64,000 nt of DNA from an uncultured Heliobacteriaceae bacterium (lineage in GTDB: Bacteria > Acidobacteriota > Blastocatellia > RBC074): assembly GCA_964563495.1 (NCBI GenBank), contig CAZLYK010000006.1:5900-69899 (forward strand), in the 5' to 3' direction. The number at the start of each line of letters is the position of its first letter. The stretch's first letter is position 1. Below the pieces are notes generated by a model. It was not told the DNA's origin and ran no database searches. It was given only the letters and a program-made list of their open reading frames with translations. Positions 5,739 through 60,173 of this stretch are shown here, piece by piece. The translations under genes were made by a program, and so were the position numbers.

Positions 5739-6974
5739 TTGAAGCTCGGTTATTTCATCGGCATGGCAGCGATCACACTGATCGTCTCGTTTCCGGTTGC
5801 GGCGCAAAAGCGAAAGACGGGATCGGCCGCACCCAGGCCCGCGGCTCGGGCAACGAGCCAAAAGTTCGAAGATCTCAAGACCCGGGCTGATCAGGCCCGG
5901 GAGAGCGGGAGCCTGGTTCAAGCCATACCTCTTTACCGGCAAGCCCTGGCCGTGCAGCCAAACTGGACGGAAGGCTGGTGGTATCTGGCGACGCTGCTTT
6001 ACGACAGGGATGAATATGCGGAAGCCGCGCGCGCTTTCAGACAAACTTCGATCCTCCAGCCTAAAGTCGGGACGCCTCTGGTCATGCTCGGCCTTTGCGA
6101 ATTCCGTCTGAGCGATTATGACAATGCGCTCAAACATATCACCGAGGGACGCAAGGTCGGCGTCAGCGACAACCCGGAAATCTCACAGGTCATGCGCTAT
6201 CACGAGGGACTGCTGCTGCTGCTCAAGGGTGATTTTGAATCGGCGGAGAGTAGGTTCAACGCGCTGAGCTATGAAAATGTCAATAGCGAGGACCTGATCA
6301 TGGCGCACGGTCTGGCCAGCCTCAGGCTGTCATTGATCCCGGCAAAGGTACCTGCTGACTATCGCGACCGCGATCTGATCCGCCGCGCAGGCTTCGCCGC
6401 ACATCTGGTCGGCCAGATCAATATGGCCGATGCCCAGAACGAATACGACCGGCTGGTGGCCGACTATCCGAAGTCGGCCAACGTTCAATACGCTTATGGC
6501 AAATATCTGCTCAAGCAGCGTAACGATGACGGCGCGATCGCGGCGTTTGAGAAAGAGATCGAGAATTCGCCGAACCATGCTCTGGCCAGGCTCCAGCTTG
6601 CTTATATCAGGTTGCGAAACAAAGAGCCGGAAGCCGGTCTGAAACTGGCTCAGGAGGCAGTGGTTCTCAACCCGCGACAGCCTCAGGGGCACTACATTCT
6701 CGGCAGAATTTTCTTCGACCTCGGTCAAAACCAAAAAGCAATCAGCGAACTGGAAGTCGCACGGCGCATGGCTCCGAATGAACCGAGATTCCATTTTGCG
6801 CTCTCACGCGCCTATGACAAGGCAGGTCGTAAGGCCGAAGCTGAAATTGCGCGCGAAACTTTCACCCGGCTCAACAAGCAGATCGAAGATGCCCGCACCC
6901 AGGGAGCCCAGCGTGGCGAGGTGATCGAAGAGACCCCGGAAAAACCCAAACCCGAAGGGAATAGACAGGATTGA
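5739..6974 (+). CDS. Secreted TPR-repeat protein; C-terminus -EGNRQD* supplied by repeat
   Basis: Signal peptide. TPR units. The last 4 codons and the TGA lie inside AATAGACAGGATTGA (6960-6974). Confidence 0.75.
   Translation: MKLGYFIGMAAITLIVSFPVAAQKRKTGSAAPRPAARATSQKFEDLKTRADQARESGSLVQAIPLYRQALAVQPNWTEGWWYLATLLYDRDEYAEAARAFRQTSILQPKVGTPLVMLGLCEFRLSDYDNALKHITEGRKVGVSDNPEISQVMRYHEGLLLLLKGDFESAESRFNALSYENVNSEDLIMAHGLASLRLSLIPAKVPADYRDRDLIRRAGFAAHLVGQINMADAQNEYDRLVADYPKSANVQYAYGKYLLKQRNDDGAIAAFEKEIENSPNHALARLQLAYIRLRNKEPEAGLKLAQEAVVLNPRQPQGHYILGRIFFDLGQNQKAISELEVARRMAPNEPRFHFALSRAYDKAGRKAEAEIARETFTRLNKQIEDARTQGAQRGEVIEETPEKPKPEGNRQD
6960..6974. repeat. Half-copy E3 (AATAGACAGGATTGA) forming the NRQD-stop tail
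   Basis: Exact family terminus. No right arm. Confidence 0.7.
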
Positions 6975-7018
6975 CCTCATGTCGCGACGCTTTTCATCGC
7001 GCTGGAGAGATTAGTCGG

Positions 7019-7140
7019 AAAATTCAAACGCCAAGACGCCAAGACCGCCAAGTAAAGAAGGCAAAGAATCGTCAATTTATTTGGGGCCAACGGTATTATC
7101 CTAGACCTCCTTGGCGTCTTTGCTTCTTGGCGTCTTGGCG
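7019..7140. repeat. Imperfect inverted repeat built from CGCCAAGA-type octamer arrays (CGCCAAGACGCCAAGACCGCCAAG ... CCTTGGCGTCTTTGCTTCTTGGCGTCTTGGCG)
   Basis: Arms at 7019-7042 and 7109-7140, spacer about 65 nt. Lies between convergent genes. Confidence 0.6.
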
Positions 7141-7179
7141 ATTTTTATACCTTAAGCATGTAAACTGTCCCGACGTGAG

Positions 7180-7237
7180 CAGGATTGACAGGATTGTTGC
7201 AGGACTTGACAAGAAAAATCCCGTCAATCCTGTCTAT
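7180..7237. repeat. Palindromic element E4 (CAGGATTGACAGGATTGTTGCAGGACTTGACAAGA / AAATCCCGTCAATCCTGTCTATT)
   Basis: Left arm truncated (no AATAGA). The right terminus provides the NRQD-stop for the minus-strand gene 7224..9488. Confidence 0.75.
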
Positions 7238-9488
7238 TGCCGGTCTTGAAGGCGCGCAGCGGGCGGACGCGGTAATTCTCCTGACCCTCGATGATTTCGA
7301 TAAACTGGTTGGGTTTGACCTCGTGAAAAACCTGGCGCTGATTGCTTGCCGGCCACCAGACCTCTATCGTTTCGATGCTTGTCGCCCTGCCCAGCCCCGT
7401 CTCCTGCTGAAGCGATGAGGCTCCGAAAGATCCGCCGCTGTTGACCTCGCGGTAACGAATCGACTTTTTCCCGGTCGCATCGATCACCGTCAGTTTGAGC
7501 CGGGCGCCGATCGCTGCCCGGTTCGATTTCTTCCCCGACAATTTGATCGAGATCCAGTTATTGACCCGGCTGGGGTTGGCGAAAAGGACTTTGTTGTACT
7601 CATCGCCCGGCACAAAACCGCCGACGTTGACGAAGATGTCTTCGTCGCCGTCATTGTCCAGATCGCCAAATGCGACTCCGTGACCTTTCTGCAGGTGGCC
7701 GGTGCCGGTGGTCGAGGTGACATCGACGAAACTGTTGCCGCCGCGATTGCGGAAGACGTAGTTCGGCATGAGTGCGGCGAATGACGGGGCTCCGGTGCCC
7801 AGGTATAGATCCAGGTAACCGTCGTTATCCAGATCGCCGAAATTCGCGCCCATCACCGGCACTACGCGGTTGAGTGAAACCCGGCTGGTGACATCCTGAA
7901 AACCGCCTTTGCCGTCGTTCCGATAAAGCTTGATGGTCTCAGCCTGATTGGGGAGCCCGAGAAAGCCCCGCGCCACCTCGGTCACGGACGGGACGAAGCT
8001 GGCGACGAAGAGATCGAGCCATCCGTCGTTGTCGTAATCAAAGAACCAGGTTGGGAAACTCATGAGAGGTTTTTCGACGTGCAGCGTCCTGGCGAGTTCG
8101 GTGAAGGTTCCGTTGCCGTTATTATGGTAGAGGAAATTCTCTTCGCCGTAATTCGACAGGTAGAGGTCCGCGAATCCATCGTTGTCGTAATCACCCCAGG
8201 TTACGCCCTTGGTGAAAGCGCTTCGCCCGACCCCGGCTTTCCGCGAGACGTCTTCAAATGTTCCATCGCCGCGATTGCGAAACAACTGGCTCGGTGTCTG
8301 CTCGTGTCCGACGAAGAGGTCCAGCCAGCCGTCGTGATCATAATCGGCCCACGCCGCACTATGGGTGCGATGGTCACGGCTGGAAAGGCCGCTTTCCAGT
8401 GTGATATCCGTGAACGTACCGTCGCTGTTGCTGCGGAGCAGGGAATTTCGCATCGGAAATTCCCACCCGCCGCGCATGACGAAAATATCCAGGCGGCCGT
8501 CATTGTTGAAATCGGTCTGGGTGCAATTGATGCCGCCGAGCTGATCGCTGAGTTTTGACTTCTCGGTCCAATCGGAAAATGTCCCGTTGCCGTTATTATG
8601 AAAATAGTGCAGTGAATCGCAGGGATTGACGCTTGAGATCACGATATCGAGGAACCCGTCATTATCCATATCGTCCAGGATAGAGCCTCCCGCGGCGCCG
8701 ACCCGGTCGACGCCGAGCGGCGACGCGACATCGACGAAACGGGCGAGCTTTTCTTTCGAGGCCAGGGCCGCCGGTGGGATGAGCCAGGCGGAGGGCACTC
8801 CCTGCGGATATCTGCCGAGCGTCATATAAGCCAGGTTGAGAAGCCAGCGGACTTCCAGATTGCCCGGATTCTGCGCCAGATGCTTCTTGAAATATTCGAT
8901 GGCCCTTTCCGAGCCGATCGTCTGTTTATGCCGGGCGGCTTTGGAGAGCGGGAAGATGCAGGTCTCGGCGTTATGGTTATGCACGCAGTTTTCCAGCTCG
9001 CCTCGCCGCATCCACGCCACGCCGAGAATCTCTTCCATGAAGACCTTGTCGTTGGCAAATTCAGGATGTCTCGAAAGGGAAGAGATGAGCAGCCGGTAGG
9101 CCTCTTCAAACTGCTCTATCGATTTTTCCATCTCCCCGCGATACGCAAAGAGCTGGCCCAGTTCATTGTTGAGCCGAATCATCTCGAGAGCGAATTGGGA
9201 TTTTTTGTCGGACTGGGCGAGTGAATTGAGATAGCCATCTGCGGAGAGGAACGCGCGGCGTTCGGCTTCGCGTCTGGACTGACAGATCGCACCCAGGTCG
9301 GCAGCGTCGGGTTGCTTGAAAAACCTGCTCACCTCGACGCGGCCTGATACCTCAAGCACCACCTGGTAGTCCCCGGCCCCGGGCGCTCTCAGATTCCAGG
9401 TCTGCGCATCGGGAATCTGCCGCCCGTCCTGTGAGAGGGTGGCACAGGCAAGCAGGGCGGCCAGCAGAAGCGAAAAAATTATCCGCAT
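7224..9488 (-). CDS. TPR + FG-GAP/ASPIC-UnbV (CRTAC1-like) secreted protein; C-terminus -TGNRQD*
   Basis: Probable start MRIIFSLLLAALLACATLS (9488). The ORF-track start 9605 extends into the neighbouring gene. FG-GAP motifs (DYDNDG...). Tail encoded by the reverse complement of TCAATCCTGTCTATT. Confidence 0.7.
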   Translation of the reverse strand: MRIIFSLLLAALLACATLSQDGRQIPDAQTWNLRAPGAGDYQVVLEVSGRVEVSRFFKQPDAADLGAICQSRREAERRAFLSADGYLNSLAQSDKKSQFALEMIRLNNELGQLFAYRGEMEKSIEQFEEAYRLLISSLSRHPEFANDKVFMEEILGVAWMRRGELENCVHNHNAETCIFPLSKAARHKQTIGSERAIEYFKKHLAQNPGNLEVRWLLNLAYMTLGRYPQGVPSAWLIPPAALASKEKLARFVDVASPLGVDRVGAAGGSILDDMDNDGFLDIVISSVNPCDSLHYFHNNGNGTFSDWTEKSKLSDQLGGINCTQTDFNNDGRLDIFVMRGGWEFPMRNSLLRSNSDGTFTDITLESGLSSRDHRTHSAAWADYDHDGWLDLFVGHEQTPSQLFRNRGDGTFEDVSRKAGVGRSAFTKGVTWGDYDNDGFADLYLSNYGEENFLYHNNGNGTFTELARTLHVEKPLMSFPTWFFDYDNDGWLDLFVASFVPSVTEVARGFLGLPNQAETIKLYRNDGKGGFQDVTSRVSLNRVVPVMGANFGDLDNDGYLDLYLGTGAPSFAALMPNYVFRNRGGNSFVDVTSTTGTGHLQKGHGVAFGDLDNDGDEDIFVNVGGFVPGDEYNKVLFANPSRVNNWISIKLSGKKSNRAAIGARLKLTVIDATGKKSIRYREVNSGGSFGASSLQQETGLGRATSIETIEVWWPASNQRQVFHEVKPNQFIEIIEGQENYRVRPLRAFKTGNRQD

Positions 9489-9489
9489 T

Positions 9490-11718
9490 TCAGGGTTCCA
9501 GGGTGAAAGAGGTCGATCGGGTGACCGTCCCCTTCGCATCGCTGATGTGAATCTTGAGCTCGAATTTGCCCGGATTGAGGCTCTCCAGCGGCAGGGCGCT
9601 CGCATACTGAATCCGCCCCTTGTTGTCCGGCGGGCCGAGTTTCAACGGCGCCCTGGCGATTGTCTTGCCGCTCTGGATCAACTCGAGGATGAGACCGGGC
9701 GTCTCCGAAGACCCGCGAGCGGGATAGACGATGAAGTAGAAACCCATCTGTTTGCCCGATTTGTGAACCGGTTCGCCGAGGTTCGGGTAGACCAGAACTT
9801 CACCTATCTGGAATGGGCCGTCCGATTTTTCTTTCACCTGCTCGACGCGTTGAATGATGGCGATGCTGCTCAGGCGCAGGCTGTTTTCGTCGGTCCCCGG
9901 TATTTCGATGGTGTTCATGCCGACCGATGCCTTGTTGTTCAAGGCATCGTAAGCGACTGCTTCGAGGTCGTATTTGCCCGCGGGCAGATTGGTTTCGCGA
10001 TAGAAGAGGATCGTTCCTTTTTTGGCGGAATTGATCGAATCCAGCGGGCCGAGCAGCACATAGTGGTAACTCAGCTTATCGACGACCTGTTTCGATTGAT
10101 CCTTGACCAGTACGACAATGCTGAAATCGGTCGAATAGACCTTCTTTTCCGTGTCGGGGGCAAAAGTGAAGGCGGAGGCAGGCATCTCGACCTCAACCGC
10201 GATTCGCCCGGGCCGATCGGTTTCAGGGAAGTGCAGGCTGTTGATGAGCAGCGGAAAATCCTTCGGTTTCGAGGGATTATTGAGCGCCGCCAGCGGCAGG
10301 GCCTCGTAATAAAAAAGCGGAGAGGACCCGGTCGAGCTGACGGCATAATAGCCCTTGCGGGCCTGAACATCGAGGCCCGGCTTTTTCAATTTGACCGAGA
10401 TGGTTCTGAACTTGCCGTCAAAAGATTCGTTCGACGGGGTATATGTCAGCAGGTAATAGCTGTTGAGGTCCTCATCGATCTCTTTGAGCTTGGGCCCGAT
10501 CAGATTGGTGTTGCCGATAAATGCGCCCCCGGTTTCGATGGCGAGCTGGGTCAGCCCGCTTTGAGGATTGAGGGTGAGCAGGTCTTCATTGCGTTCGAGA
10601 CCGACGGTCAACGGGCCCGATGTGTCGCTCATGGCCTTGTCCAGGTTATCCATGCGGCGGCGTGAGCGGGCATTGATCTCGTCACGGGCTCCCTGGAGGA
10701 GGCTTTCGGTGCGAAGTCCCGCGGCGTCGATCGAATAAACGCTGACGTTGGCCCGGTTGGCGGAATTGATCACCGAGCGGAAATGCTGGCGCACATTTGG
10801 CGGCAGGGCCATGCCTTCTGAAAAGAAGATGACGGCCTTGCGTCCGGGCAATCTTCGCATCGAGTTGACGAGCGCCAGCAGGCCGTTGGTCGTCGCATAG
10901 CCCTGCTGGTCCCTCTGCAGTTGTTCAAATGTCTCCTGTGTCCGTTGCTGCAACGTGTCGAACAGCCGGTCAACGTCCGCCATTCCCGCGGCAGACCCGG
11001 CAGCCGCTGCCGCGGGGCCACCACCGGCAGCGGCGGTCGCGGCTGAACTTGCAGCCGCTGCCTGGCGCGTGGCGGCGGCTTCCTGTGCGCCCGGACGCAT
11101 GACGTTGCTGTCAAACGTGGAAGAGGCAAGCATCCCCGCCTTTTCAATCCCCTTCTTAACCAGGTTGATGTCGGTGGTGTAGTTTTGAACCGTATTGAGC
11201 GAGAGGTTGATGGCGAATACGCCGACGAAACCACTGAGCTGCGTGCTCTCGCCGAGATAACTCATGGCCGAATCAAAAGCGCGTTTGCGCGCATCCTGCG
11301 ATAACCGGTCAAAGACCAGAGCGACCACGTTGACGCCGACATCGGGATCGGGCCGTCTTTCGACGGGTGTCAGACCGCCGGTCGCCGTGGCAGGGGTGGC
11401 AGGGGTGGCGGGGGTGGCGGGGGTCGCCGCCGGTTCGCCGTCCTGCCTGATTGCCGCAGTCTGCCGGTTGACCAGTTTGAAAGATTCTAGATTTTGTTTG
11501 ACCCCGTCTTCAAAGACTTCGAAATCATCGGGGGACAAATCCCTGACCGCCTGGCCCTTCTTGTTTTTGACCACAACATCGAGCAGGACCTCGGTCGAAC
11601 TGATCCGAATCTTCTGTTGATCCTGGCCTGCCGGACGCGATGGCGTCTGTGCCGAGAGAGAGACCACCGGCGAAGCGACCAGAACCATGATAAGCAAAAT
11701 ACGCATTCCGGGTTTCAT
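9490..11718 (-). CDS. VWFA-domain protein of the Acidobacterial TIGR03436-like type (secreted)
   Basis: Probable start MKPGMRILLIMVLVASPVVSLSA. IRISSTEVLLDVVVKNKKGQAVRDLSPDDFEVFEDGVKQ signature shared with 13194..14294. Its stop lies 1 nt from the start of 7224..9488 (operon). Confidence 0.7.
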   Translation of the reverse strand: MKPGMRILLIMVLVASPVVSLSAQTPSRPAGQDQQKIRISSTEVLLDVVVKNKKGQAVRDLSPDDFEVFEDGVKQNLESFKLVNRQTAAIRQDGEPAATPATPATPATPATATGGLTPVERRPDPDVGVNVVALVFDRLSQDARKRAFDSAMSYLGESTQLSGFVGVFAINLSLNTVQNYTTDINLVKKGIEKAGMLASSTFDSNVMRPGAQEAAATRQAAAASSAATAAAGGGPAAAAAGSAAGMADVDRLFDTLQQRTQETFEQLQRDQQGYATTNGLLALVNSMRRLPGRKAVIFFSEGMALPPNVRQHFRSVINSANRANVSVYSIDAAGLRTESLLQGARDEINARSRRRMDNLDKAMSDTSGPLTVGLERNEDLLTLNPQSGLTQLAIETGGAFIGNTNLIGPKLKEIDEDLNSYYLLTYTPSNESFDGKFRTISVKLKKPGLDVQARKGYYAVSSTGSSPLFYYEALPLAALNNPSKPKDFPLLINSLHFPETDRPGRIAVEVEMPASAFTFAPDTEKKVYSTDFSIVVLVKDQSKQVVDKLSYHYVLLGPLDSINSAKKGTILFYRETNLPAGKYDLEAVAYDALNNKASVGMNTIEIPGTDENSLRLSSIAIIQRVEQVKEKSDGPFQIGEVLVYPNLGEPVHKSGKQMGFYFIVYPARGSSETPGLILELIQSGKTIARAPLKLGPPDNKGRIQYASALPLESLNPGKFELKIHISDAKGTVTRSTSFTLEP

Positions 11719-11795
11719 GAATTTTTCTCCCACAGAAGACTTAAATCGACAGGATGGACGAGATTCTTTCAGGATTGACGAAACAGACGATAACC

Positions 11796-12209
11796 TTAAC
11801 TTCCCAGGGTTTGATCGATTTCCGATTGCAAATCTTCGTTGGCCTTGACCGGTCGAGAATAATACCACCAGTTGGCCTCGGCCGACCACCCCTCCTCCTC
11901 TGCGACTTCATCGCTCCAGAGGCACCGGCTCGTCGAGGTGACTAAAGATTTCATGGCCCGGTCGGCCTGGCGGATTCTTTGATCATACTCCTCGCGCTGT
12001 TCATCGGTCGCCACGGCCAGCGCCTCTTCGAGTAATTGGCGGGCGTCCAGATCGTTCAAATAATCATCGAGTCCGAGCAAATAGCCGTCTTTGACCGTCT
12101 CGACGATTCCCTCCCAGTTTTCGACCAGGCCCGCTAACCCACGCCTGATCAAGTGATCGCCGCAGCCCGTTTCCTGTAAGTATTCGCGTACCGGATCTTT
12201 CTCACTCAT
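11796..12209 (-). CDS. Hypothetical acidic protein (137 aa)
   Basis: ORF only. No recognizable motif. Sits between a terminator hairpin and the VWFA gene. Confidence 0.4.
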   Translation of the reverse strand: MSEKDPVREYLQETGCGDHLIRRGLAGLVENWEGIVETVKDGYLLGLDDYLNDLDARQLLEEALAVATDEQREEYDQRIRQADRAMKSLVTSTSRCLWSDEVAEEEGWSAEANWWYYSRPVKANEDLQSEIDQTLGS

Positions 12210-14624: not shown

Positions 14625-14728
14625 AATAGACAGGATTGACAAGATTTTCACAGGATTAAACAGGCTGTTTACTGCCTGGTCTTTGATCCTGTTTAATCCT
14701 GTGAAAATCTTGTCAATCCTGTCTATTT
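14625..14728. repeat. Full palindromic element E5 immediately 3' of tRNA-Asp
   Basis: AATAGACAGGATTGACAAGATTTTCACAGGATTAAACAGG ... CCTGTTTAATCCTGTGAAAATCTTGTCAATCCTGTCTATT. Arms about 45 nt. 8 nt after the tRNA CCA. Confidence 0.85.
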
Positions 14729-16032: not shown

Positions 16033-16120
16033 CCTAAATGTGACGGGTGACGAATGACAAGAGAGCCTGTCTATTTCTTCTCATTCAAGTGAAAATTGCA
16101 GTAAAGTCACTGCTATAACC

Positions 16121-16621
16121 ATGTCTGAAAAATCTGAAAAACCTCCAAAAGAACTTTCGCATCTGGACGCCGAAGGTCGCATCAACATGGTCGATGTCGG
16201 AGCCAAAGCCGTGACTGCCCGGATGGCGGAGGCAAGCGGTTTCGTCGCTCTCTCGCCCGAAACTGTCAGGGCGATTCGCGAACGGCGAACGCCGAAAGGC
16301 GATCCGCTCGAGACCGCGCGACTCGCCGGGATTATGGCGGCGAAGCGAACCGCGGAATTGATCCCCCTCTGCCATTCCCTCGCGCTTTCGCACGCCGATG
16401 TCCAGATCGAGCTTGAGGACGATGGGGCGAAGATTACGGCGACTGCTTCTACCAGTGCGCAGACCGGCGTCGAGATGGAAGCCTTGACGGCCGTCTCGGT
16501 CGCGGCGCTGACGATCTACGATATGTGCAAAGCGATCGATCGCCGAATGGAGATCACCGCCATCAGGCTCGAACGCAAGAGCGGAGGGCGTTCGGGCGAA
16601 TGGAGGAATCGACAGGATTGA
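16121..16621 (+). CDS. moaC: Cyclic pyranopterin monophosphate synthase MoaC; C-terminus -EWRNRQD* supplied by a repeat half-site
   Basis: MoaC core ([12 protein letters not shown]...[11 protein letters not shown]). Tail encoded by AATCGACAGGATTGA (16607-16621). Confidence 0.85.
16607..16621. repeat. Degenerate half-copy E6 (AATCGACAGGATTGA)
   Basis: One mismatch to the family terminus. Forms the NRQD-stop of moaC. Confidence 0.6.
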
Positions 16622-16640
16622 CCGGATCTTCTTAACTTTT

Positions 16641-17471
16641 ATGGAAATAAGCGCGGCCATGAAGAGACTGGAAGAGGCCTTAGCCGAGCACTACGGCTGG
16701 TCGGCCCATCCAGTGACGCGCGAGAAGGTCAACCAGGCGGTGGCGAGCAAGGCCGCCCGGTTGGGAATAGAGCCGCAGGAGTATTGCCGGATTGCCGCCG
16801 GCAGCCAGAGCGAACTGCTCGCCCTGGTCGAAGAGGCCTCGACCGGTCAAACCCACTTTTTCCGCGAGCCCGACCAATTCGCCTGCCTGCGCGCCAGAAT
16901 CCTACCCGAGCTGATCGCCGCCTCTCCAGGGAACGAGAAGGTCCGTTTATGGAGCACCGCCTGTTCGACCGGCGACGAAGCCTACTCGCTGGCCATCAGC
17001 TTCGACCAGGCCCGACCGGAAGAGAGCGAACGACAGGTCGAGGTCTTTGCCACGGACGTCCGCAACAGCGCGCTGCTGGCGGCCAGCCAGGCCCGCTATC
17101 GATCATCCGCGCTGGGCGAGCTTGATGGGCAGGTCAAGGCGAAATATTTCGAGACGGCCTGGGTGGCGGGTGAAGAACAATACACGCTGATTCCGGATAT
17201 CCGTCGCGTCGTCGTCTTCCGGCGTGTCAACCTGCTCGATCGATTGTTTTGGAAAGGCGTGGCGGGCAAGTTCGATCTGATCGTCTGCTCAAATCAACTG
17301 CTCTATCTGCACAGCACAGCGGCGCGGCAGATGGTGGGCAACCTGGTCAACTCGATTCGAGCCGGCGGCTATCTCATGGTTGCGCCGTCCGAGGTCGATC
17401 TGGTCAACTCTTCAGACCTCACACAACTGCCGGAATCCCCTACCTTCTTTCGAAGAAATAGACAGGATTGA
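16641..17471 (+). CDS. CheR-type protein-glutamate O-methyltransferase (orphan); C-terminus -RRNRQD*
   Basis: CheR signatures ([28 protein letters not shown]). No cheB or MCP nearby. Confidence 0.7.
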
Positions 17472-17543
17472 CAGGATTTTTGCAGGATTTGACAAGATCA
17501 GGTCTTGTTCAATCCTGCAAAAATCCTGTCGATCCTCTCTATT
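17457..17543. repeat. Full palindromic element E7
   Basis: AATAGACAGGATTGACAGGATTTTTGCAGGATTTGACAAGAT ... TCTTGTTCAATCCTGCAAAAATCCTGTCGATCCTCTCTATT. The stop of the CheR gene lies inside it. Confidence 0.85.
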
Positions 17544-17545
17544 TT

Positions 17546-17806
17546 TTAGAGTTTCAGCGTTTGGAGGACGATCTCGAGCGAGCGGGCGGCGATATCGCGC
17601 GTGCGTTCGCTCCAGCCCATCTGCTCGCGGTTCTGTTCGTAATCACGACGGACGCGCTCTTTGAGCCGCTCGATGAACTCTTCCGGGTTGGGTGATTTCT
17701 CGATCGCGTGGTCGAGCTCGCGATAGGCGTTATGGATCGTGATCAACCAGTCAGAGGCGTGATATTCGGGCGTCCCTGGTTCAAAAGAGAATTTTGCGGT
17801 TGGCAT
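17546..17806 (-). CDS. Hypothetical small protein (86 aa)
   Basis: ORF only. Stop lies 2 nt past E7. Confidence 0.4.
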   Translation of the reverse strand: MPTAKFSFEPGTPEYHASDWLITIHNAYRELDHAIEKSPNPEEFIERLKERVRRDYEQNREQMGWSERTRDIAARSLEIVLQTLKL

Positions 17807-17842: not shown

Positions 17843-18850
17843 TCAATCCCGTCGAGTGAGCAGCGTCCGGGCCATTTGGGCGTAGGTGTCGACGGCGTTC
17901 AACAAATCCGATTTACAAATAAATTCGTGTGCAGTGTGAGCATCGTGAATCGAACCGGGGCCGAAGAGGAGCGGCGTCCCCCAATTTGTCAGGCAGGGGA
18001 TATCCGTGCCGAAGCGGACGATGCTCTTTGGGATGTTCCCCATCTCTTTGACCGTATGCGTGCGGATCGGAGGGATCGAAAATCCCCGTTTGAGCGTGGC
18101 GCGCGCGCCGACCATGGCGGTTACCTGATCGAACAACTGATCAGGCTGGTTGACGGTGCGAAACATGACTTCAGCCGCGGCGAAATCCGGTATGACATTA
18201 GGTTTGCGGCCTCCGCTGATCGTCCCAATGTTGCATGTAGTCGGACCCAGTTCGGCGTCCTCAGGCCAGCTCGCCCGTCGAATATCGTCGAGGATATCGA
18301 TCAGTTTTTCGATCGCTGATTCACCCATCTCCGGATAAGCTGAATGGGCGGTGCGCCCTTTGGCCTCGATCACGATCCGCAGCGCGCCCTTGGTCGCGAT
18401 CGCCTGATGGCTCTCGGTCGGTTCGCCGTTGATCAGAAACCGGTTGCGGTTCGGCAGCAGGTTGGCCGCTTTGGCGCCGTCGCTGCCGTCCTCTTCTCCG
18501 ACCAGATAGAGCAATCCGATATTCCGCGCCCCCTCATCCTTCAATCTTCCGGCGGCGAACACCTGCGCGGCAATCACACCCTTGGCGTCACAAGCTCCGC
18601 GCCCGTATATCTTCTGCTCGTCCTCACTGAAGGGGATGAATGGCGGCACGGTATCGATATGCGATGAGAAGGTGACGAGCGGGTCGCCGAGGCGTGCGTA
18701 GACGTTGAGGCGGTCATCGCTCACCGTTTGTGTCGTGACCTCGAATCCGGCCGCGGACAGGTAATCGCGCAGCCAGCGCCCTGCGGCGCCCTCATTCCAG
18801 GAGATCGATTCTATCTCCATCAATTCACGCGTGAATTGAAAGATATCCAT
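17843..18850 (-). CDS. M20-family metallopeptidase, probable succinyl-diaminopimelate desuccinylase (DapE/ArgE-like)
   Basis: M20 motifs (HIDTVP, GRGACDAKG, LVGEEDG). Adjacent to dapD. C-terminus -TRRD* is encoded by CGACGGGATTGA, a degenerate repeat terminus. Confidence 0.65.
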   Translation of the reverse strand: MDIFQFTRELMEIESISWNEGAAGRWLRDYLSAAGFEVTTQTVSDDRLNVYARLGDPLVTFSSHIDTVPPFIPFSEDEQKIYGRGACDAKGVIAAQVFAAGRLKDEGARNIGLLYLVGEEDGSDGAKAANLLPNRNRFLINGEPTESHQAIATKGALRIVIEAKGRTAHSAYPEMGESAIEKLIDILDDIRRASWPEDAELGPTTCNIGTISGGRKPNVIPDFAAAEVMFRTVNQPDQLFDQVTAMVGARATLKRGFSIPPIRTHTVKEMGNIPKSIVRFGTDIPCLTNWGTPLLFGPGSIHDAHTAHEFICKSDLLNAVDTYAQMARTLLTRRD

Positions 18851-19776: not shown

Positions 19777-19816
19777 TCTTGTTCAATCCGGCAAAATCCT
19801 GTCAATCCTGTCTATT
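19777..19816. repeat. Right-arm-only element E8 (TCTTGTTCAATCCGGCAAAATCCTGTCAATCCTGTCTATTT)
   Basis: Sits between the esterase stop and the dapD start. Provides the NRQD-stop for the esterase gene. Confidence 0.75.
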
Positions 19817-24506: not shown

Positions 24507-24590
24507 ATGGACAGGGTTGACCGGGTTGGTTCAAGATTGAACCGGATATCCCGTTCCTGCCTATCCCGTCATTTCGGAAGGAGGCGATAG

Positions 24591-42883: not shown

Positions 42884-42981
42884 ACAGGATTAACAGGATT
42901 TCACCGGATTAAACAGGATCTACCTGGCCGGTTTGGCTGATCCTGTTTAATCCGGTGAAATCCTGTTAATCCTGTCTATTT
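42878..42981. repeat. Full palindromic element E11
   Basis: AAATAGACAGGATTAACAGGATTTCACCGGATTAAACAGGATC ... GATCCTGTTTAATCCGGTGAAATCCTGTTAATCCTGTCTATTT. Lies between the stop of the response regulator and the stop of the convergent cytochrome gene. Confidence 0.85.
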
Positions 42982-43966: not shown

Positions 43967-43992
43967 ATTTCCGTTCGTCTCAATCATCCTGT

Positions 43993-47622: not shown

Positions 47623-47756
47623 CTTCTTTCCCTCGGGGAAGCTCGTAGAGATCTGATCAACCTTGGGGCGCAGGAAAAACTGTAGGCTTCAAGAGAGAAC
47701 GGGCAAGACTATAGCCTCTAACGACGCAATGCCGCAAGCAAAAAATCCAGAATAAA

Positions 47757-47861
47757 GTAGACGGGATTAACAGGATTTAAAGAGGGTTAAACTAGATCAT
47801 AGACAAACCAGAAAAACATCCTGTTCAATCCTCCTGAAATCCTGTTAATCCTGTCTGTATT
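47757..47861. repeat. Degenerate palindromic element E12 in the divergent promoter region of the cytochrome cluster
   Basis: AGTAGACGGGATTAACAGGATTTAAAGAGGGTTAAAC ... ATCCTGTTCAATCCTCCTGAAATCCTGTTAATCCTGTCTGTATT. Recognizable termini, diverged interior. Confidence 0.7.
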
Positions 47862-48068: not shown

Positions 48069-50054
48069 GTGCGAATTCGCATTTTTTCAGTGTTTCTTCT
48101 TCATCTTCTTCTTGCGTTCTGCCCGACGAGTGGTATTGCCCAGGAGCCGGCGAGCGGCTCAAAGCAGGCAACCGGCCAACTGGCCGACCAGATGGCTGAG
48201 CGACTGAAGAATCGGTTGCCGCAGGAGCTTTCGCAACTACCGGCGAAGAAGAATGCGCAACCATCCGCGCCGCTGCGAATCAAGCCGCCGGAGACGGCTG
48301 TCCAGCAAACAGAGAGGCCGAAGTTGCGGTTGCCGGAGGAGAGGCCGCTCGGAGCTTCGGGGCCGTCGCGAGACAGGCGCAAGCCGGCGACCGAGGACGC
48401 CGATTTTATCGTGATCCAGGACCGCTGGCGGATCGGCCTGCCTGAAGATCCGAGGTTTCGCAAAGGCGACATCTTCAATCCTTATCGTCAAAACGTCCTC
48501 AAAGGCGATTATCCAATCGCCGGCAACGACGTCTTTTTGAATATTACGCTCGCCAGCGAGAGCGATTTCAACGTCCGGCGGGTGCCGTTGCCGCAGGGTG
48601 TCAGTGCGCAGCTGCCGGGCAGTCTCGAGTTCTTCGGGCGCGGCCGCCAGGAAGCCTTCAATCAGAACTTCATCTTCTCGCTCGATCTTTTTCGCGGAGA
48701 TGCGTCGTTCAAACCCGTAGACTGGCGGTTCAAAGTCACCGGCATCGCCAATCTCAATCTGCTCAACGTGCGTGAGCGCGGGGTCACCAATGTCGACGTG
48801 CGCAGGGGGACGACGCGCTGGGACGGGTTCAACTCGATCGAAGAGGTCTTTTACGAATACCGGATCGGCGACACGCCGAGGATCTTTCCCTTCCTGCGCG
48901 GCAAAGGCAGTCGCGATGGCCGATCGCCCGCTTTCGATACGACCTCGATCCGCGTCGGGATACAGCCGTTCACCAGCGATTTCCGCGGCTTTATCTTCAG
49001 CGATGCGAACCTGGGAGCGCGCCTCTTCGGCAACTTTAGCTCGAACCGCTGGCAGTACAATCTGGCCTACTTCAATCTGCTCGAGAAAGAGACCAACAGC
49101 CAGCTCAATACCATCAATTTTGCCGAGACCAAATTTCGCAATCAATCGGTCTACATCGCCAATCTCTACCGCCAGGACACATTTGTGCTCGGCTACACGA
49201 CGCAGTTCAGCCTCCATTACAGCGATGACCGTGCGACGGTCGAATACGATCAGAACGGTTTTCTGGTCCGCCCGGCGAGGATCGGCACGGTTACACCGCA
49301 CCGCGTGCGCTCGGGTTATTTGGGCTGGACTGGAGACGGTCATTTCGGGCGTTACAATCTGACGCACGCGTTTTACCAGGCGATCGGGCGCGACACCTTC
49401 AATCCACTGGCGCAGCGCGGGACGCGGATCAACGCCCAGATGGCCGCGGCCGAAGCCTCGGTCGACTATGATTGGCTGCGCTATCGAGTCGGGGTCTTTT
49501 ACACTTCCGGGGATTCCAAGCCGACTGACGGGACGGCGCGCGGGTTCGATGCGATCCTGGACAATCCGAACTTCGCCGGAGGGAGGTTCAGCTTCTGGAA
49601 CTCACAGGGGATTCGCCTGACGCAGACGTCGGTCGCGCTGGTCGAGCCGCGCAGCCTGATCCCCAGCTTGCGCACCAGCAAGCTGCAGGGCCAGGCAAAC
49701 TTCGTCAATCCGGGTTTGACGCTCTACAACGCGGGGATCGATGTCGATCTCACGCCGAAGCTGCGCGGCTTCATTAATTACAATTATTTACGATTCAACC
49801 GCACCGAGCCGCTCGAGCTCTTGTTGTTCCAACCGGCCATTCGCCACGAGATCGGTCACGATCTCGGAGTCGGTTTTATCTACCGGCCGTTGTTGAACGA
49901 GAACATCGTCCTGATCGGCGGCGCCTCGGGTCTCAGACCCGGCCGAGGATTTACGGATATTTACAGCTCGAATTGCAACGGCCTTCCGGCCGGCTGCGGG
50001 GCGGGCAGCCCGACCCTCTGGTCGGCTTTCGTGACCTTGAAATTCGTTTATTGA
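48069..50054 (+). CDS. Putative outer-membrane beta-barrel protein (661 aa)
   Basis: Signal peptide. Pro/Arg-rich linker. Long beta-rich region with alternating hydrophobic residues. C-terminal ...VTLKFVY (terminal aromatic). Stop is 7 nt before the decaheme gene. Confidence 0.5.
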
Positions 50055-50061
50055 ACAGACA

Positions 50062-53944
<3,883 letters not shown>

Positions 53945-53957
53945 AATAGACAGGATG
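53945..53957. repeat. Half-copy E13 (AATAGACAGGATG) between the cytochrome stop and the dppD-like start
   Basis: TAA-AATAGACAGG-ATG: the stop of the upstream gene, a half terminus, then the start of the next gene. Confidence 0.65.
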
Positions 53958-54938
53958 AGCTTAATCGAAGTTCGCCAGCTCAAGACCTACTTTGCGACCA
54001 AACGCGGCGAGGTCCGCTCGGTCGACGACGTCTCGTTGGCCATCGAACCGGGTGAGACGCTGAGCCTGGTCGGCGAATCCGGATGCGGTAAATCGGTGAC
54101 GGCGCTTTCGATCATGCGCCTGGTTTCGTCGCCGGGGCGAATCGTCGGCGGAGCGATTATCTTTGAAGGACGCAATCTGCTCGAATTGAGCGAAGGTCAG
54201 ATGCGCCGGATGCGCGGCGATGATATCGCCATGATCTTTCAGGATCCGATGACTTCGCTCAATCCGGTTTATACCGTCGGCGAGCAGATCGCCGAGGCGA
54301 TCAGGCTGCATCGCAAGGTCTCCAAACGCGAGGCCTGGAATCAGGCGATCGAGGGCATGCGCGATGTTTCAATACCGGCGCCCGAAGTCCGCGCGAAAAC
54401 CTATCCGCACGAGATGTCCGGAGGCATGCGCCAGCGGGTCATGATCGCCATGGCTCTGGCTTGTGACCCGAAGCTCCTGATCGCCGACGAGCCGACGACT
54501 GCGCTCGATGTGACGATCCAGGCGCAGATCCTCGATCTTTTGACCGAATTGCGCGAGAAGAGGAACCTCGCCATCCTGCTCATCACCCACGATCTGGGGG
54601 TCGTCGCCGAGACCTCCGATCGCGTCGCGGTCATGTATGCCGGAAAGATCGTCGAAGAGGCGTCCGTCAAAGAGGTCTTCAGCCAACCGAGACATCCATA
54701 CACCGAAGGACTGCTCCGCGCCGTGCCGCGGCTGGATGAGTCCAGCCAAGAGAAGAAGAAGCGGTTGCTGACGATCGAGGGCGTAGTCCCGAACCCGTTG
54801 GATCTCCCGCCGGGTTGCCGGTTTGCACCGCGTTGCCCGCACGCCCGCGAGGAATGCGGCGCGAGCGAGATCGAATTGATGCCGATCGGATCTCATCATG
54901 CAACCCGCTGCATTCGGGCCGGAGAGATTTACGGATAG
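53954..54938 (+). CDS. Oligopeptide/dipeptide-type ABC transporter ATP-binding protein (DppD/OppD-like)
   Basis: Probable start MSLIEVRQL. Walker A GESGCGKS. Signature [10 protein letters not shown]-terminal oligopeptide-ABC extension with a Cys cluster. TAG stop from degenerate repeat E14. Confidence 0.8.
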
Positions 54939-54947
54939 ACGGGATTT
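54935..54947. repeat. Degenerate half-copy E14 (GATAGACGGGATT) at the dppD/dppF junction
   Basis: Two mismatches to the family terminus. Supplies the TAG stop. Confidence 0.45.
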
Positions 54948-56011: not shown

Positions 56012-56794
56012 ATGAATCCGGAACTGAGCTACGCTTCTCAACCCGAAAATGTAACCCCGGAGCCGACACCGCAAGGGTTTTTCAATCGTCTCGTCGGCGT
56101 CTACTTCTCCCCCGGAGAGACCTTCGCCGAGATCGGTCGCGCCCCACGGATAATTGTCCCGATGATCGTGCTGCTCATCTGTGTGATCGTCGGGGTCATG
56201 ATCACATTTAGCCGGCTGCCGATGGACAAGCTCATGACTCAGCGAATCGATGATGCCGTTCAATCCGGGCAGCTCAACCAGGAGCAGGCCGATCGCCAGC
56301 GCGAACAGATGGCCAAGATGGCGCCGTTTATGAAAATCGGCGGACCGATTATCGCCGCGATCTCGATCGTAGTGATCACCCTGATCATCGCCGGAATAGC
56401 CAAATTGGTCAGCATGATGATGGGAATCGAGAATGGCTTTATGCCGCTCTGGGCGGTGGCGATCTATACTACACTGGCCGTCTCGATCATCTCCTCGATC
56501 CTCTTTATCATCCTGCTCTTCCTCAAGCCTGCCGATGAGTTCGACCTCAACAATCCACTCGGGTCAAACCTCGCGGCGTTGCTCTCGATGGTCGGAGCAG
56601 GCGAGCTGCCGAAATTTCTCAAAGGCCTGCTGACCTACGTCGATGTGTTCTATATCTGGAAGATCATCCTGCTCGGGATCGGGTTCGCCGCCGTCTCGCG
56701 TAAGCTGAAGACCTCGACCTCGATCGTTGTCACTTCAATCGTCGCCCTGGTTTTCGCCCTCGCCGGCGCCGCCTGGACATCGATGTTTGGTTAA
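56012..56794 (+). CDS. Yip1-domain family integral membrane protein
   Basis: N-terminal cytoplasmic region, then about 5 TM segments in a Yip1-like arrangement. Confidence 0.55.
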
Positions 56795-56868
56795 AAAATA
56801 GAGGGGATCGATAAGACGCCGCCTTGTCAATCCCCTCTGTTTTTTTGTGCTGAGAAAGGACTGGTTTT

Positions 56869-58542
56869 ATGTGGAGTCAAAAGCGAGCGGTCAGAAGCGC
56901 GCCGGTCTATGATGTCGTCATTGTCGGATCGGGCGCCGCCGGGGGTACCGCAGCCTGGGTGCTGGTTCAGGCCGGGTTGAAAGTCGCCATGCTCGAAGCC
57001 GGGCCGCTGCGCAAACACCTGGTCGATTTTCCCTATCACGAACCTTTCCCATACGATGATCCTTATCGCGGTCTGAAAGGCGAGCTGTCGAAGAGCGAAG
57101 AGTTCAAGAAAAAGTATTCGCTCACCGGCAGCTCACCCGATGAGCCATACACTACGCCCGAAAAGATGCCTTACGAATGGTTCAGGGCGCGCAACGTCGG
57201 CGGGCGCACCATGTTCTGGGGACGATTCGCGAACCGCTTCAACGAAACGGACTTCAAAGCCTATTCGACCGACGGTCAAGGCAAGGACTGGCCGGTCACA
57301 TATCAGGAGATCGCGCCCTATTACGACAAGGCCGAGATCTTCATGGGAGTCTGCGGAGCCAAAGAGAACCACCCAGACCTGCCCGATGCCGATAACTTCC
57401 TGCCCCCGGCGGCCTATAAATGCTCCGACGTGGTGATCAAGAGCGCGGCCGAGAAGGTCGGGCTGCGCACGATTCGCGTCCGCCGAGCGATGCTGACCAA
57501 GCCTTACAACGGCTACGCCGCCTGCCACTACTGCAACGGCTGTGATGACGGCTGCGAATCGCATTCGTTCTATAATTCGGCTTTCCGCCAGGTCGTCCCT
57601 TTGATCCAGAAATATCCGAAGAACTTCATGCTGATCCCCAACGCCATGGCGGACAAGATCAATCTCAACGCCAGGGGGCTGGCGAGCGGCGTCAGTTATA
57701 TCGACAAGGCGACCGGTAAGAGCCGCGAAGTCAAAGCCCGCTCGGTCATGGTCGCCTGCGGCACGCTCGAAACCACGCGGTTGCTGCTCTTGTCGGGGAT
57801 CGCCAATTCGAGCGGCATGGTCGGGAAGAACTTTATGGAGCACCTGGATGTCGGCGCTCAGGCCTATTTCCCCGAGCTTTTCTGGAAAGACCGCGAGGCG
57901 GGGGACGGCATTGGCGGTTCGCACATCGTCATTCCCTGGTTCGGCTATTTCCGTCCGAACGAAAAGCGCGACTTCGTCCGCGGCTTCCAGATCGAACCGT
58001 CATCGCGCATCCGTATGCGGCCGGATAAGAACGCCAAAAACATTCCCGGTTTCGGCAGCCAGTTCAAGCGCGAGGTGCGCAAATGGACCGGCGCCCGCGT
58101 CATCCTGGCCGCGCACGGAGAGATGCTCCCTTCACCAAAGAAATTCGTCGAGCTCGACCCGAACGTCAAGGATAAATGGGGCATCCCGGTGATCAGGATC
58201 CATCACCCGCTCGAAGAGAATGATGACAATATGTATAAGTATATTCGCCGCACCTATGAAGAGATCTTCACGGCGGCCAGGGCAATCGAAGTCAGACTGC
58301 CGAAAGAGCCGGATTCCCCGGGCCATTCGATCCATGAACTGGGCGCCGCGCACATGGGCAGCGACGCGAAGACCTCGGTCCTCAACCGGTTTAACCAATC
58401 CTGGGACGTCAAGAACCTCTTCGTGATCGACGCCGCGGCTTTCACCTCGGCCACGCACAAGAATCCGACATTGACGATCATGGCGCTGAGCTGGCGATCT
58501 TCCGAGTACATGCTCAGCGAAATGAAGAAAGGGAACCTGTAA
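56869..58542 (+). CDS. GMC-family FAD-dependent oxidoreductase
   Basis: FAD-binding [23 protein letters not shown]-terminal domain (HELGAAHMG...[23 protein letters not shown]). Confidence 0.8.
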
Positions 58543-58544
58543 AA

Positions 58545-58583
58545 AATAGACAGGATTGACAAGACCCGTCAATCCTGTCTATT
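58545..58583. repeat. Minimal hairpin element E15 (AATAGACAGGATTGAC-AAGACCC-GTCAATCCTGTCTATT)
   Basis: 16-bp perfect arms with a 7-nt loop, 2 nt after the TAA of the GMC oxidoreductase gene. Confidence 0.85.
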
Positions 58584-58595
58584 CCACTCAATCAA

Positions 58596-60173
58596 ATGGC
58601 GAGCCCGATAATTCCGCATTCCGCGTTCCGCATTCTGCATTTTCTTCTCTGTCTCGCGCATCTACTCGTTTTGGTCTTTCTCGCCCGCCAGCATCCGTTC
58701 GGCAATTTCGCAACGGAGACGGATTTCTATCAATTTTATGCGCCGGATGCCGAGCGGATCGCGGCCGGCCAATTTCCATTGAATACATATCAAGGACCGG
58801 GATATCCGGCTTTGCTGGCGATCATCAACCGTCTGAGCGGAGGCGATCTTTTTCTCGCCGGAAAATGGTTGTCGGTGATCTGTGCGGTAATCTGCGGGTG
58901 GCTGGTCTTCATCCTCTTCTCCCGCGCCTTCGGAGATGCGGTCGGGATCGGCGCGCAATTGATCGCCATCGTCAGCGGCGAGTTCCCTCAATTTTCGATC
59001 AACGCCGCCACCGATATATTCTTTTTGCTGATCTGCCTGGCGACCCTGGTGGCGCTGACCGGCGACCGGCTCTCGGTCAGGTGGCGCGTTACGCACGCCT
59101 CGATTCTGACCGGCCTCGCTTATCTGACACGTTATAACGGGGTGTTTCTGCTCGCCGCCTTTTTGATCGGGGTCGTCCTCCTGAACCTCTTCGAAGAGAG
59201 CCGTCGTGAGCGGGCGAAACTGGCGGTGATCATCCTGGCCGTCTTTTTGATCACGGTCATGCCGTGGCTGACGGCGAACTATCGCCATCATGGCTCGCCT
59301 TTTTACAACACCAACTATTTGAACATGGCAACCGAGTTCTATCCCGAGCTCGTCGCCGGCAAGACCAACCAGGACGCGACGCGGGCCCTCGAGCAGAGAT
59401 TCAAATCCTTCGGTGATGTGCTCAATTATGATCCGAAACGTGTGCTGGCCCATTATCCGGCCAATCTGCTTGAGAGCGTGCGTCTGAGTATTTTCGGCGA
59501 GCTGGTCAATCGCTGGGTCGGGTGTCTGGCGGTTCTGGGGGTGCTGCTGGCGCTGATTGAAAGAAGATCGAAGCTGGTTTTGCTGCTCCTCACGGCCGGG
59601 GCGATCTATCTATTATTGATGGCGCTCAATCATTGGGAGACTCGATACTATTTTTTCATCATGGTTCTGCTCGCCGGCTTCGCGGTCGGTGCCGTCGCCA
59701 GGCTGTCGGAGCTGGCGCAACGAGTGATCCGGCTCGCCTCGCCGGCAGACGCGCTGGTCCCGACCTTGCTGGTCGCTGCGTTGTGCGCCTTGTCACTGGC
59801 TGAATCAGGCAAAGACGTCAAGCGCTTTCTCGCCGCCCAGCCGTGGGAGATCCTCGCCGCTAGAGATTACCTAACCAGCGCTAATCCATCCGGGGCGCAC
59901 CTGCGCATCGTTGCGCGCAAGCCGCACCTGCCTTACCTGGCGCGCGGCGAATGGGTCTTCTTTCCGCAAGTCAGATCGATCGAGGAGTTCCGCCTCTGGG
60001 TCGAGAGCAATCGCGTCGATTACATCGCGATCGGCAAGCGTGAGCTCAAAGAACGGAAAGAACTCGCCCCCCTCGGCGACCCTGAGAAGGCGCCGGATTG
60101 GCTCAAAGCCGTCTGGGTGCACGACGACCCGCCCTTCATCCTTTATCGCCCGGTAGAGAATAGACAGGATTGA
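58596..60173 (+). CDS. GT-C-fold membrane glycosyltransferase (GT39/GT83, PMT/ArnT-like); C-terminus -VENRQD*
   Basis: About 11 TM helices followed by a C-terminal soluble domain. Architecture like dolichyl-phosphate-mannose/ArnT-type transferases. Confidence 0.55.

Follow-up and report, generated by a model that had tools for sequence, protein, structure and literature searches.

How do genes of unrelated function come to end in the same four amino acids? The question is raised by a 64,000-nucleotide stretch of DNA, here called the window, from an uncultured Heliobacteriaceae bacterium (GTDB lineage Bacteria; Acidobacteriota; Blastocatellia; RBC074), which corresponds to positions 5,900 to 69,899 of contig CAZLYK010000006.1 in assembly GCA_964563495.1. 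In this stretch, an original prediction made from the sequence had noticed that the tail Asn-Arg-Gln-Asp (NRQD), together with the stop codon that follows it, is written by the end of a dispersed repeat. The explanation that we consider probable is a burst of a small, non-coding palindromic repeat in a Blastocatellia chromosome, similar to the repetitive extragenic palindromic (REP) sequences and to the miniature inverted-repeat transposable elements (MITEs), with copies persisting at gene ends.

Stop codons supplied by a palindromic repeat

The outer 15 nt of the repeat read AAT AGA CAG GAT TGA (or TAA), and a second frame of the same terminus holds TAG. Three groups of gene ends are found when the stop of each same-strand gene is placed relative to the first A of AATAG. 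As predicted, seven unrelated open reading frames (ORFs) end in exactly NRQD-stop, in all cases 12 nt into the terminus (offset +12; termini 6960+, 7238-, 16607+, 17457+, 19816-, 25230+, and 60159+). The Pfam domain ends before the tail in six of them (TPR, FG-GAP/ASPIC, MoaC, CheR, esterase, and PMT_2), and the seventh, ORF 24591-25244, has no Pfam match. The second group takes only its TAG from AATAG (offset +2, n = 5; termini 25458, 42879, 43997, 54934, and 60262); it comprises the four genes already proposed (ending at 25454, 42883, 54938, and 60258) and a fifth that had been missed, the cytochrome gene 43993-45210. In the third group the gene has kept its own stop, closely followed by a terminus (offsets -3 to -17, with gaps of 0-14 nt, n = 7; termini 53945, 17543, 40886, 42980, 56797, 58545, and 3944). 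Here the four genes originally listed (stops at 3929, gap 14 nt; 40883, gap 2; 53944, gap 0; 58542, gap 2) are joined by three more (17546, 42983, and 56794, with a gap of 2 nt each). Altogether, 19 of the 44 protein genes in a list based on a codon-usage score, which runs up to position 61,928, end in or at an element (43%; the earlier estimate was about a third), and in 12 of the 44 (27%) the stop itself is supplied by the terminus. When 30 termini were placed at random in 20,000 trials, the mean number of such associations was 0.31 and the maximum was 5.

The repeat behind these gene ends is far too abundant for a chance motif. The sequence AATAGACAGGATT occurs 20 times with at most one mismatch, against 0.03 copies expected from dinucleotide-preserving shuffles of the 64-kb window, and a search at up to three mismatches, with each match judged in its context and decayed copies counted, gave 30 termini at about 21 loci, that is, about one locus per 3 kb. 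The full copies, all near-perfect palindromes, measure 39, 45, 87, and 102-104 bp and have predicted hairpins of -24 to -78 kcal/mol (z from -7 to -18 relative to shuffles). Each arm is a direct array, not itself self-complementary, of one to four modules of 9-11 nt (NACAGGATT), the outermost being AATAGACAGGATTGAC, so that CAGGAT recurs about every 10 bp (AATAGACAGGATT, then GACAGGATT, TTTGCAGGATT, and AAACAGGATC); the 39-bp copy has the outermost module alone. One-armed remnants of 13-43 nt make up about half of the loci, and composites are also present. A scan of the window at Rfam gathering thresholds returned a cobalamin riboswitch and two tRNAs only, with no family over the repeat, and a full-text search of the open literature for strings of the window's repeat (family A) and of family D gave no relevant paper.

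The copies and their neighbours are, in order along the window:

1448-1535: 88-bp palindrome with a decayed left end (GACAGACAGG) and the right end AATAGACAGG on the minus strand (dG -73.5, z -16); in a tandem junction, 84 nt past gene 98-1366.
3944-3985 (+): one-armed copy of four modules, 14 nt past the stop of cytochrome gene 2781-3929.
6960-7238: composite in a convergent junction; a solo terminus (6960-6975) gives NRQD-TGA to the TPR gene (5739-6974), and a short palindrome (about 7180-7238) gives NRQD-TGA to the FG-GAP/ASPIC gene (7224-9605, -).
11744-11787 (+): one-armed decayed copy (AATCGACAGGATGG...) near the probable start ATG (11721) of the gene listed from 9490; the other neighbour is gene 11796-12209 (-).
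14625-14727: perfect palindrome of 103 bp, 8 nt past tRNA-Asp (dG -65.7, z -15.8).
16063-16075 (-): 13-nt terminal fragment (AATAGACAGGCTC) upstream of moaC.
16607-16634 (+): one-armed copy of two modules (AATCGACAGGATTGACCGGATC...), NRQD-TGA of MoaC (16121-16621); occupies the 19-nt moaC-cheR spacer.
17457-17543: 87-bp palindrome filling a convergent junction, NRQD-TGA of CheR (16641-17471); an 86-aa ORF (17546-17806, -) stops 2 nt from its far end.
17843-17858 (-): possible decayed terminus (ACTCGACGGGATTGAC, 13/16 match) at the stop of a DapE-like M20 peptidase.
19776-19816 (-): one-armed copy of four modules, NRQD-TGA of the esterase (19802-20497, -); extends to the dapD ATG.
24506-24575: strongly decayed variant (AATGGACAGGGTTGACCGGG...), 65 nt past gene 20850-24443 (z -2.2).
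25230-25458: composite with an inner unit of about 190 bp; the left end gives NRQD-TAA to ORF 24591-25244, the right end gives TAG to the TonB-dependent receptor (25454-27832, -).
40886-41113: composite with an inner unit of about 190 bp, 2 nt past the stop of DUF4230 gene 40143-40883.
42879-42980: perfect palindrome of 102 bp filling a convergent junction (dG -77.5, z -18); gives TAG to the response regulator (42521-42883), and the cytochrome gene listed from 42983 stops 2 nt from the other end.
43985-43997 (-): 13-nt solo terminus AATAGACAGGATG, with the TAG stop of cytochrome gene 43993-45210 and the start ATG of the following gene.
47756-47859: decayed copy of 104 bp, the sole copy in a divergent (promoter) region.
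53945-53957 (+): 13-nt solo terminus that follows gene 49973-53944 and its TAA without a gap and holds the start ATG of the dppD-like gene.
54934-54946 (+): decayed solo terminus GATAGACGGGATT, TAG of the dppD-like gene.
56797-56841: variant hairpin (AATAGAGGGGATCGA...) of 45 bp, 2 nt past the stop of gene 56012-56794.
58545-58583: minimal copy of 39 bp (16-bp stem, 7-nt loop), between the stop of a GMC oxidoreductase gene, 2 nt upstream, and the next start, 13 nt downstream.
60159-60262: 104-bp palindrome filling a convergent junction; NRQD-TGA of the PMT_2 glycosyltransferase (58596-60173) at one end, TAG of GlpD (60258-61928, -) at the other.

The named genes were checked against Pfam (TPR, FG-GAP/ASPIC, MoaC, CheR, M20 peptidase, carboxylesterase, TonB-dependent receptor, response regulator, PMT_2 glycosyltransferase, DppD-like ATPase, GlpD, and the multihaem cytochromes). 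Several features of individual copies have also been observed. The CAGGATG module of a one-armed copy holds the start codon of three downstream genes (at 3974, a probable start, 43985 on the minus strand, and 53955), and the remnants with those start codons span exactly the distance from stop to start; in the first case the start listed at 3941 is probably not translated, a signal-peptide-like start being available at 3974. The unit of about 190 bp common to the composites 25230-25458 and 40886-41113 lies at about 25259-25445 (-) and 40919-41105 (+), runs from ACAGCGGCTTTCAG through two internal hairpins to GAAAATCGCTATAA, and has identical junctions with the CAGGATT modules in both; it could be either a cargo or a nested element. 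Another palindrome, of GCCAAGA modules (CGCCAAGACGCCAAGACCGCCAAG ... CTTGGCGTCTTGGCG) and unrelated in sequence, lies at about 7028-7141 inside the composite 6960-7238. Finally, the two arms within one copy are almost perfectly complementary (14625-14727, 42879-42980, 60159-60262, and 1448-1535), several arm positions differ between these four copies, and the arms of metagenome copies match far less well; the pattern could come from sub-families with palindromic masters or from a homogenisation of arms.

Origin of the tails and spread of the repeat

A shared tail could in principle be an ancestral or functional C-terminal motif, or a coincidence, and some native MoaC tails do hold Asn, Arg, Gln, or Asp residues (WNRQ-stop, RRQDDE-stop). 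The comparison of orthologues refutes this explanation. None of the orthologues without the element ends in NRQD for MoaC, CheR, the esterase, the TonB-dependent receptor, or GlpD, and a C-terminal NRQD or RQD was found in 0 of 240 fetched homologues. Moreover, the unrelated genes share identical codons at the DNA level, running on into further repeat modules, where chance would give 0.03 motif copies and 0.3 gene-end associations. These comparisons support a repeat-derived origin of the tail rather than ancestral protein sequence. Relatives of MoaC have ...GEW[KR]R followed by 1-10 variable residues, against GEWR-NRQD-stop in the window; those of CheR have FFRR and two residues, against FFRR-NRQD-stop; and those of the esterase have WL and 4-6 residues, against WLL-NRQD-stop. 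The TonB-dependent receptor ends at an identical Lys in relatives and in the window, with TAA in the former and TAG in the latter, and GlpD, compared across 119 homologues, has EFEREY and 3-20 further residues in relatives and ends ARPRK-stop in the window, within the shortest class. In this way the last 0-6 native residues have been replaced by the repeat and the length of the protein stays within about two residues of the native one.

The DapE-like M20 peptidase (stop at 17843) is a less clear case. This gene had been described as ending in -RRD on a decayed copy, and 13 of its last 16 nt do agree with the terminus, with no second module. The tail T-R-R-D-stop is as long as the orthologous tails TEQD-stop and TEQS-stop, which fits a native tail; at the same gene end, a full copy is present in one relative (L022) and a decayed copy in another (L024), which favours a decayed copy. 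A purely native tail, considered at one stage, was softened on account of these two loci, and from the sequences at hand the tail is ambiguous between a native TEQD-type end and a decayed terminus. The M20 peptidase query retrieved syntenic loci in metagenome-assembled genomes of Blastocatellia/Acidobacteriota only, with a best identity of 82%.

Gene ends of relatives show comparable features. Two GlpD orthologues (P0009 and P0013) end in ENAKHAK-stop and ENAKYAK-stop, tails that look like donations by a GCCAAGA-type repeat in other genomes. Species-specific module palindromes (ATGATGAATGATGA, TGCGGATTGCGGAT, AGTCCTAAGTCC) lie just after or overlap the MoaC stop in L004, L005, L010, L028, and other loci, and in L028 and L010 the MoaC tail (NDEG-stop and NDGG-stop, respectively) is inside such a palindrome.

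The element itself is nearly missing from 80 related loci of Blastocatellia/Acidobacteriota (L001-L080; 1.15 Mb), where four full copies were found (L017, L018, L022, and L029); the genome of the window therefore had a burst. Presence and absence at orthologous sites can be followed between the window and these loci, and also between genomes of "Candidatus Muproteobacteria" (L205 against L213 and L215, at hisG-hisD, tatC, and grx-murA). Beyond these relatives, the 16-mer AATAGACAGGATTRAC is present in at least 120 metagenome contigs. Among the matches listed, 127 in number, the contigs have a G+C content of 0.35-0.71 and further CAGGAT modules follow the 16-mer in 106 of 127. One contig with four copies (L134) belongs to Ca. 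Muproteobacteria (Gammaproteobacteria), as judged from a 100% MurA match, and plasmid pTs485 of Ca. Thiodictyon syntrophicum carries the repeat family too. The 16-nt terminus is thus identical in Acidobacteriota and Gammaproteobacteria, an identity across two phyla that argues for the horizontal spread of a mobile element.

In other organisms too the terminus gives NRQD-stop or TAG to unrelated genes (for example, in L115). Frames and offsets were analysed for 96 metagenome termini among the matches listed: 16 give TAG to a long ORF with a high G+C content at third codon positions, nine give NRQD-stop, at most two are read through, and 11 have a stop 2-20 nt upstream. For 36 of these 96 a gene end lies within -20 to +15 nt, compared with 80 of 2400 positions drawn at random. 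Exact-protein look-ups for near-identical strains whose sites are empty returned fragmentary Logan contigs only, ending inside repeats; the exact GlpD protein is recorded from an NCBI contig of 72,626 bp and from two Logan assemblies. In the corresponding accessions (SRR14932511 and SRR14932634; L201-L204) the short-read contigs break in repeats about 20-110 nt beyond the flanking genes.

Why the copies lie at gene ends

The original prediction had offered two reasons for this association, an insertion preference for gene 3' ends and a terminus that evolved to be "stop-safe." The 3' concentration itself is strong. Copies fill five of seven convergent junctions, which hold 45 nt of element-free DNA in all, 14 of 32 tandem junctions (1,560 nt), and one of six divergent junctions (1,808 nt, or 53% of the total); 19 of 20 loci are in convergent or tandem junctions. 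A preference in insertion as such is not separated from survivorship. In relatives without the element the corresponding junctions have only 0-40 nt (0-4 nt between CheR and its convergent neighbour, 1-7 nt between moaC and cheR), so that the last codons are almost the sole tolerated sites. Under the burst scenario, the elements would be mobilised in trans, now or formerly, by an enzyme, and copies would persist where damage is least, in the stop-codon neighbourhood of a tightly packed genome with junctions of 0-40 nt; one-armed remnants would survive because they now carry a working stop codon.

Selection has left a clear trace in the frames. Two of the three frames close at the terminus, so a copy whose end falls in the last few codons ends the ORF at once, adding NRQD in one frame and a single residue, usually Lys, in another; the third would read through at least 34 codons. 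Read-through in this third frame was seen in none of 12 cases in the window and in at most two of 27 in metagenomes (among the matches listed). Taken together, window and metagenomes use the frames in the ratio 16 : 21 : 2, and this depletion of the open frame (P = 3e-5) shows purifying selection on which insertions survive.

Under the stop-safe idea, the outer sequence of the element would have been selected for stops in several frames, making gene-end insertions harmless. Two frames are indeed closed within 15 nt, and in three window copies an upstream TAA (TAAAA abutting AATAG) closes the third. This idea is nonetheless very improbable, and the claim of a stop-safe terminus is not upheld: 27% of shuffled 18-nt termini have at least two frames closed, no stop closes the third frame anywhere in the whole 103-bp element, and other long hairpins of related loci have 0.79 stop frames per arm end (131 ends) against 0.76 in shuffles. 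Besides, the terminus is equally conserved where it has no gene end (14625, 14727, and 58583).

Active targeting, in which the mobilising machinery recognises the neighbourhood of stop codons or junctions and selection only trims the frames, is a less probable reading that is compatible with a burst; the feature recognised might be TA or TAA in an A-rich context, or a structure that is single-stranded or resembles a terminator. Positions -9 to -1 of the flank are rich in A, with T at -1 in only 6% of copies, and five elements lie in convergent junctions that total 45 nt of native DNA. A change from TAA to TAG at an identical residue has occurred in tatC and in the TonB-dependent receptor gene, and a native MoaC tail (AAA AGA CAA TGA) resembles the terminus, suggesting microhomology. 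Against targeting, no duplication of TA or of another target is detectable, the peak at offset -5 is missing in the metagenome set (among the matches listed), some copies are 65-84 nt from a stop or in a divergent region, and survivorship predicts much the same picture, given the 0-40 nt junctions of relatives.

Further evidence for targeting comes from the his-operon region of Ca. Muproteobacteria, compared between L205 (GCA_001785115.1, 1-20801), L213, and L215. Modular palindromes of at least five unrelated families are present in almost every junction of mla-bolA-grx-murA-hisGDCBHAFIE-tatABC. Some his junctions, 4 nt long, overlapping, or about 40 nt in one genome, reach 95-148 nt in another, where a palindrome fills them; at the same his junction, sister genomes have at least three unrelated families (CAGGATT, GCCGCAGAGACGCAGAG, and TTTCAGGTTTAAAG), each at or abutting the stop. 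The end of tatC is GAA TAA in two genomes (empty site) and GAA TAG ACAGGATT in the third (filled), and HisD ends IKK-stop when the site is empty and IKKK-stop, with AAA TAG ACAGG, when it is filled. A model with TA as the target fits the junctions of tatC and of the TonB-dependent receptor; as a target-site duplication it was rejected, since it fails at hisA-hisF. At hisI-hisE, the native overlap TAATG has become TAA TG[about 100 nt]AT ATG, a possible duplication of ATG or TG. A mechanism directed at junctions and a very strong filtering would each account for these his-operon and junction data.

A broader proposal is that the repeat belongs to an undescribed super-class of modular palindromes, with arms of tandem 9-11-nt modules and unrelated sequences (CAGGATT, GCCGCAGAGACGCAGAG, GATGAACGC, TTTCAGGTTTAAAG, ATGATGAATGATGA, and GCCAAGA). 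In distant phyla (Acidobacteriota and Gammaproteobacteria) such palindromes swap with one another at a given gene junction, always from the stop codon, and some operons have them in nearly all junctions. The proposal, which we regard as doubtful, would imply a shared, uncharacterised, and sequence-independent mechanism of junction- or stop-directed insertion or replacement.

The stability of the hairpins, which is very high, invites another explanation, namely bidirectional transcription terminators or mRNA 3' stabilisers selected by the host and homogenised in the genome, the overlap with stops being a by-product. Flanks that are A-rich upstream and, by symmetry, T-rich downstream resemble bidirectional terminators, the convergent junctions are filled in five of seven cases, and REPs no more than 15 nt from a stop act on mRNA stability and translation, as summarised in PMC12306157. 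This alternative is unlikely on several grounds. The present family and its sisters lie between nearly all the his genes of Ca. Muproteobacteria, where efficient termination would be harmful; mismatches between arms on the transcribed strand are G-U in 96 cases and A-C in 99, with no signature at the RNA level; and the identical 16-mer in Acidobacteriota and Gammaproteobacteria argues for horizontal spread and not local evolution. A scan for consensus terminators did not call the elements, whose loops and stems are outside the limits of the scan. In many metagenome copies (among the matches listed), the arms are module arrays and not exact complements, which points to a DNA-level constraint, such as protein binding or a role like that of terminal inverted repeats. 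The hairpins are probably not efficient transcription terminators. Under the burst scenario their side effects would likely resemble those of REPs: where the hairpin begins at the stop or upstream of it, termination of translation may be slowed and the stability of the mRNA 3' end could be altered.

Several observations weigh against a burst of mobile copies that persist at gene ends. None of more than 200 loci had an autonomous element or transposase between paired termini; where such termini are separated by 300-4000 bp in the fetched loci, the genes enclosed are all ordinary, and no RAYT (Y1/HUH) transposase was found in the window or in the 200+ fetched loci. No direct repeat surrounds any of 10 full window copies; with no target-site duplication visible, mobility is inferred only from presence/absence and from the cross-phylum identity. 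The closest orthologues available are about 60-85% identical, and exact insertion points are therefore unreadable. A reconstruction by simple excision is plausible at CheR, where it would give FFRRF-stop, and was rejected as a general account: excising 42879-42980 or 60159-60262 restores no nearby stop of the upstream gene (the response regulator and the glycosyltransferase, respectively), and thus either not all are clean insertions or deletions took place afterwards. Finally, copies hug the stop, with a gap of 2 nt in five window cases, even at places that would have offered 14-30 nt of spacer, which is not predicted by survivorship alone.

Relation to known repeats and significance

The original prediction regarded stop donation as an unusual property. 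It has in fact been described before. In the GTAG REPs, the TAG of the outer xTAG is often the stop codon of a flanking ORF (Di Nocera, De Gregorio & Rocco, 2013, PMC3733652). These high-copy extragenic palindromes are found as singletons, dimers, and clusters, mostly between convergent or unidirectional ORFs and less than 20 bp from the upstream 3' end, with some inside ORFs (PMC3733652). The present family is likewise high-copy, stop-donating, and located near 3' ends in convergent and unidirectional junctions. It differs in form: classical REPs are 20-40 bp long, with a stem of 6-13 bp and an unpaired GTAG/CGTC at one end, whereas the present copies are mostly 70-110 bp long with arms of 16-42 nt (two copies being 39-45 bp) and have ATAG at both ends, base-paired (AATAG/CTATT). 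Neither is it a REPIN, which consists of two inverted REPs, each a hairpin, since the arms here are direct arrays of NACAGGATT.

Replacement of C-terminal residues has been reported as well. The QMITE1 and QMITE2 elements of Coxiella burnetii overlap functional genes by 1-50 bp, in all cases at 3' ends, and change the composition of the C-terminus without significant extension or truncation of the protein, the C-terminal residues of EnhC being supplied by the MITE (PMC5896051). The present repeat similarly swaps C-terminal residues and keeps the size of the protein; the QMITEs are unrelated in sequence, host, and size, and have a far lower density, and the paper reports no four-residue tail shared across many genes. 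As for MITEs in general, the present family has terminal inverted repeats, a size within 50-500 bp, a non-coding sequence, and presence/absence polymorphism, and no parent insertion sequence with the same termini was found among the fetched loci. In Escherichia coli, REPs no more than 15 nt past the stop stall terminating ribosomes and lower expression (Liang, Rudd & Deutscher, 2015, as summarised in PMC12306157). The same geometry, or a tighter one than in this summary, is present in 19 genes of the window, with the stop inside the stem in 12.

Among other palindromic repeats, the Correia elements of Neisseria (Correia repeat enclosed elements, CREE) and the enterobacterial repetitive intergenic consensus (ERIC) sequences are non-autonomous, about 100-150 bp long, and located at gene junctions. 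They are co-transcribed, their long hairpins are RNase III substrates, and they can alter the ends of neighbouring ORFs. Correia elements duplicate TA, have a different inverted repeat of 26 bp and an integration host factor (IHF) site, and are not known outside Neisseria; the present family showed none of these features. The present family is best filed as very dense, widely distributed REP/MITE-like intergenic palindromes, not as a classical REP, and the principle of stop donation itself is not new.

Other features of the window lie apart from the repeat. A cobalamin riboswitch (Rfam RF00174, 102 bits) is located at 30833-31061 on the minus strand, in a 622-nt divergent region upstream of gene 29784-30701. 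Genes for multihaem c-type cytochromes are found at 2781-3929, 42983-45210, and 48069-53944; one of these proteins has 1323 aa, with LVIVD repeats and MtrC/MtrF-like domains, and the set suggests a capacity for extracellular electron transfer.

For this organism, the finding means that about a quarter of the genes in the window have received their stop codon and final residues from a repeat that is selfish or semi-domesticated. This affects the annotation of C-termini, the alignment of orthologues, and the assembly, and public short-read assemblies break at the copies. The shared NRQD shows that many proteins tolerate a four-residue tag of polar, acidic character. The family is also well suited to studying the arrival of REP/MITE-like elements at gene ends and the influence of a stop-containing hairpin on termination and mRNA decay. 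Of the loose ends, the swapping, at stop codons and in distant phyla, of modular palindromes of unrelated sequence is the most interesting.

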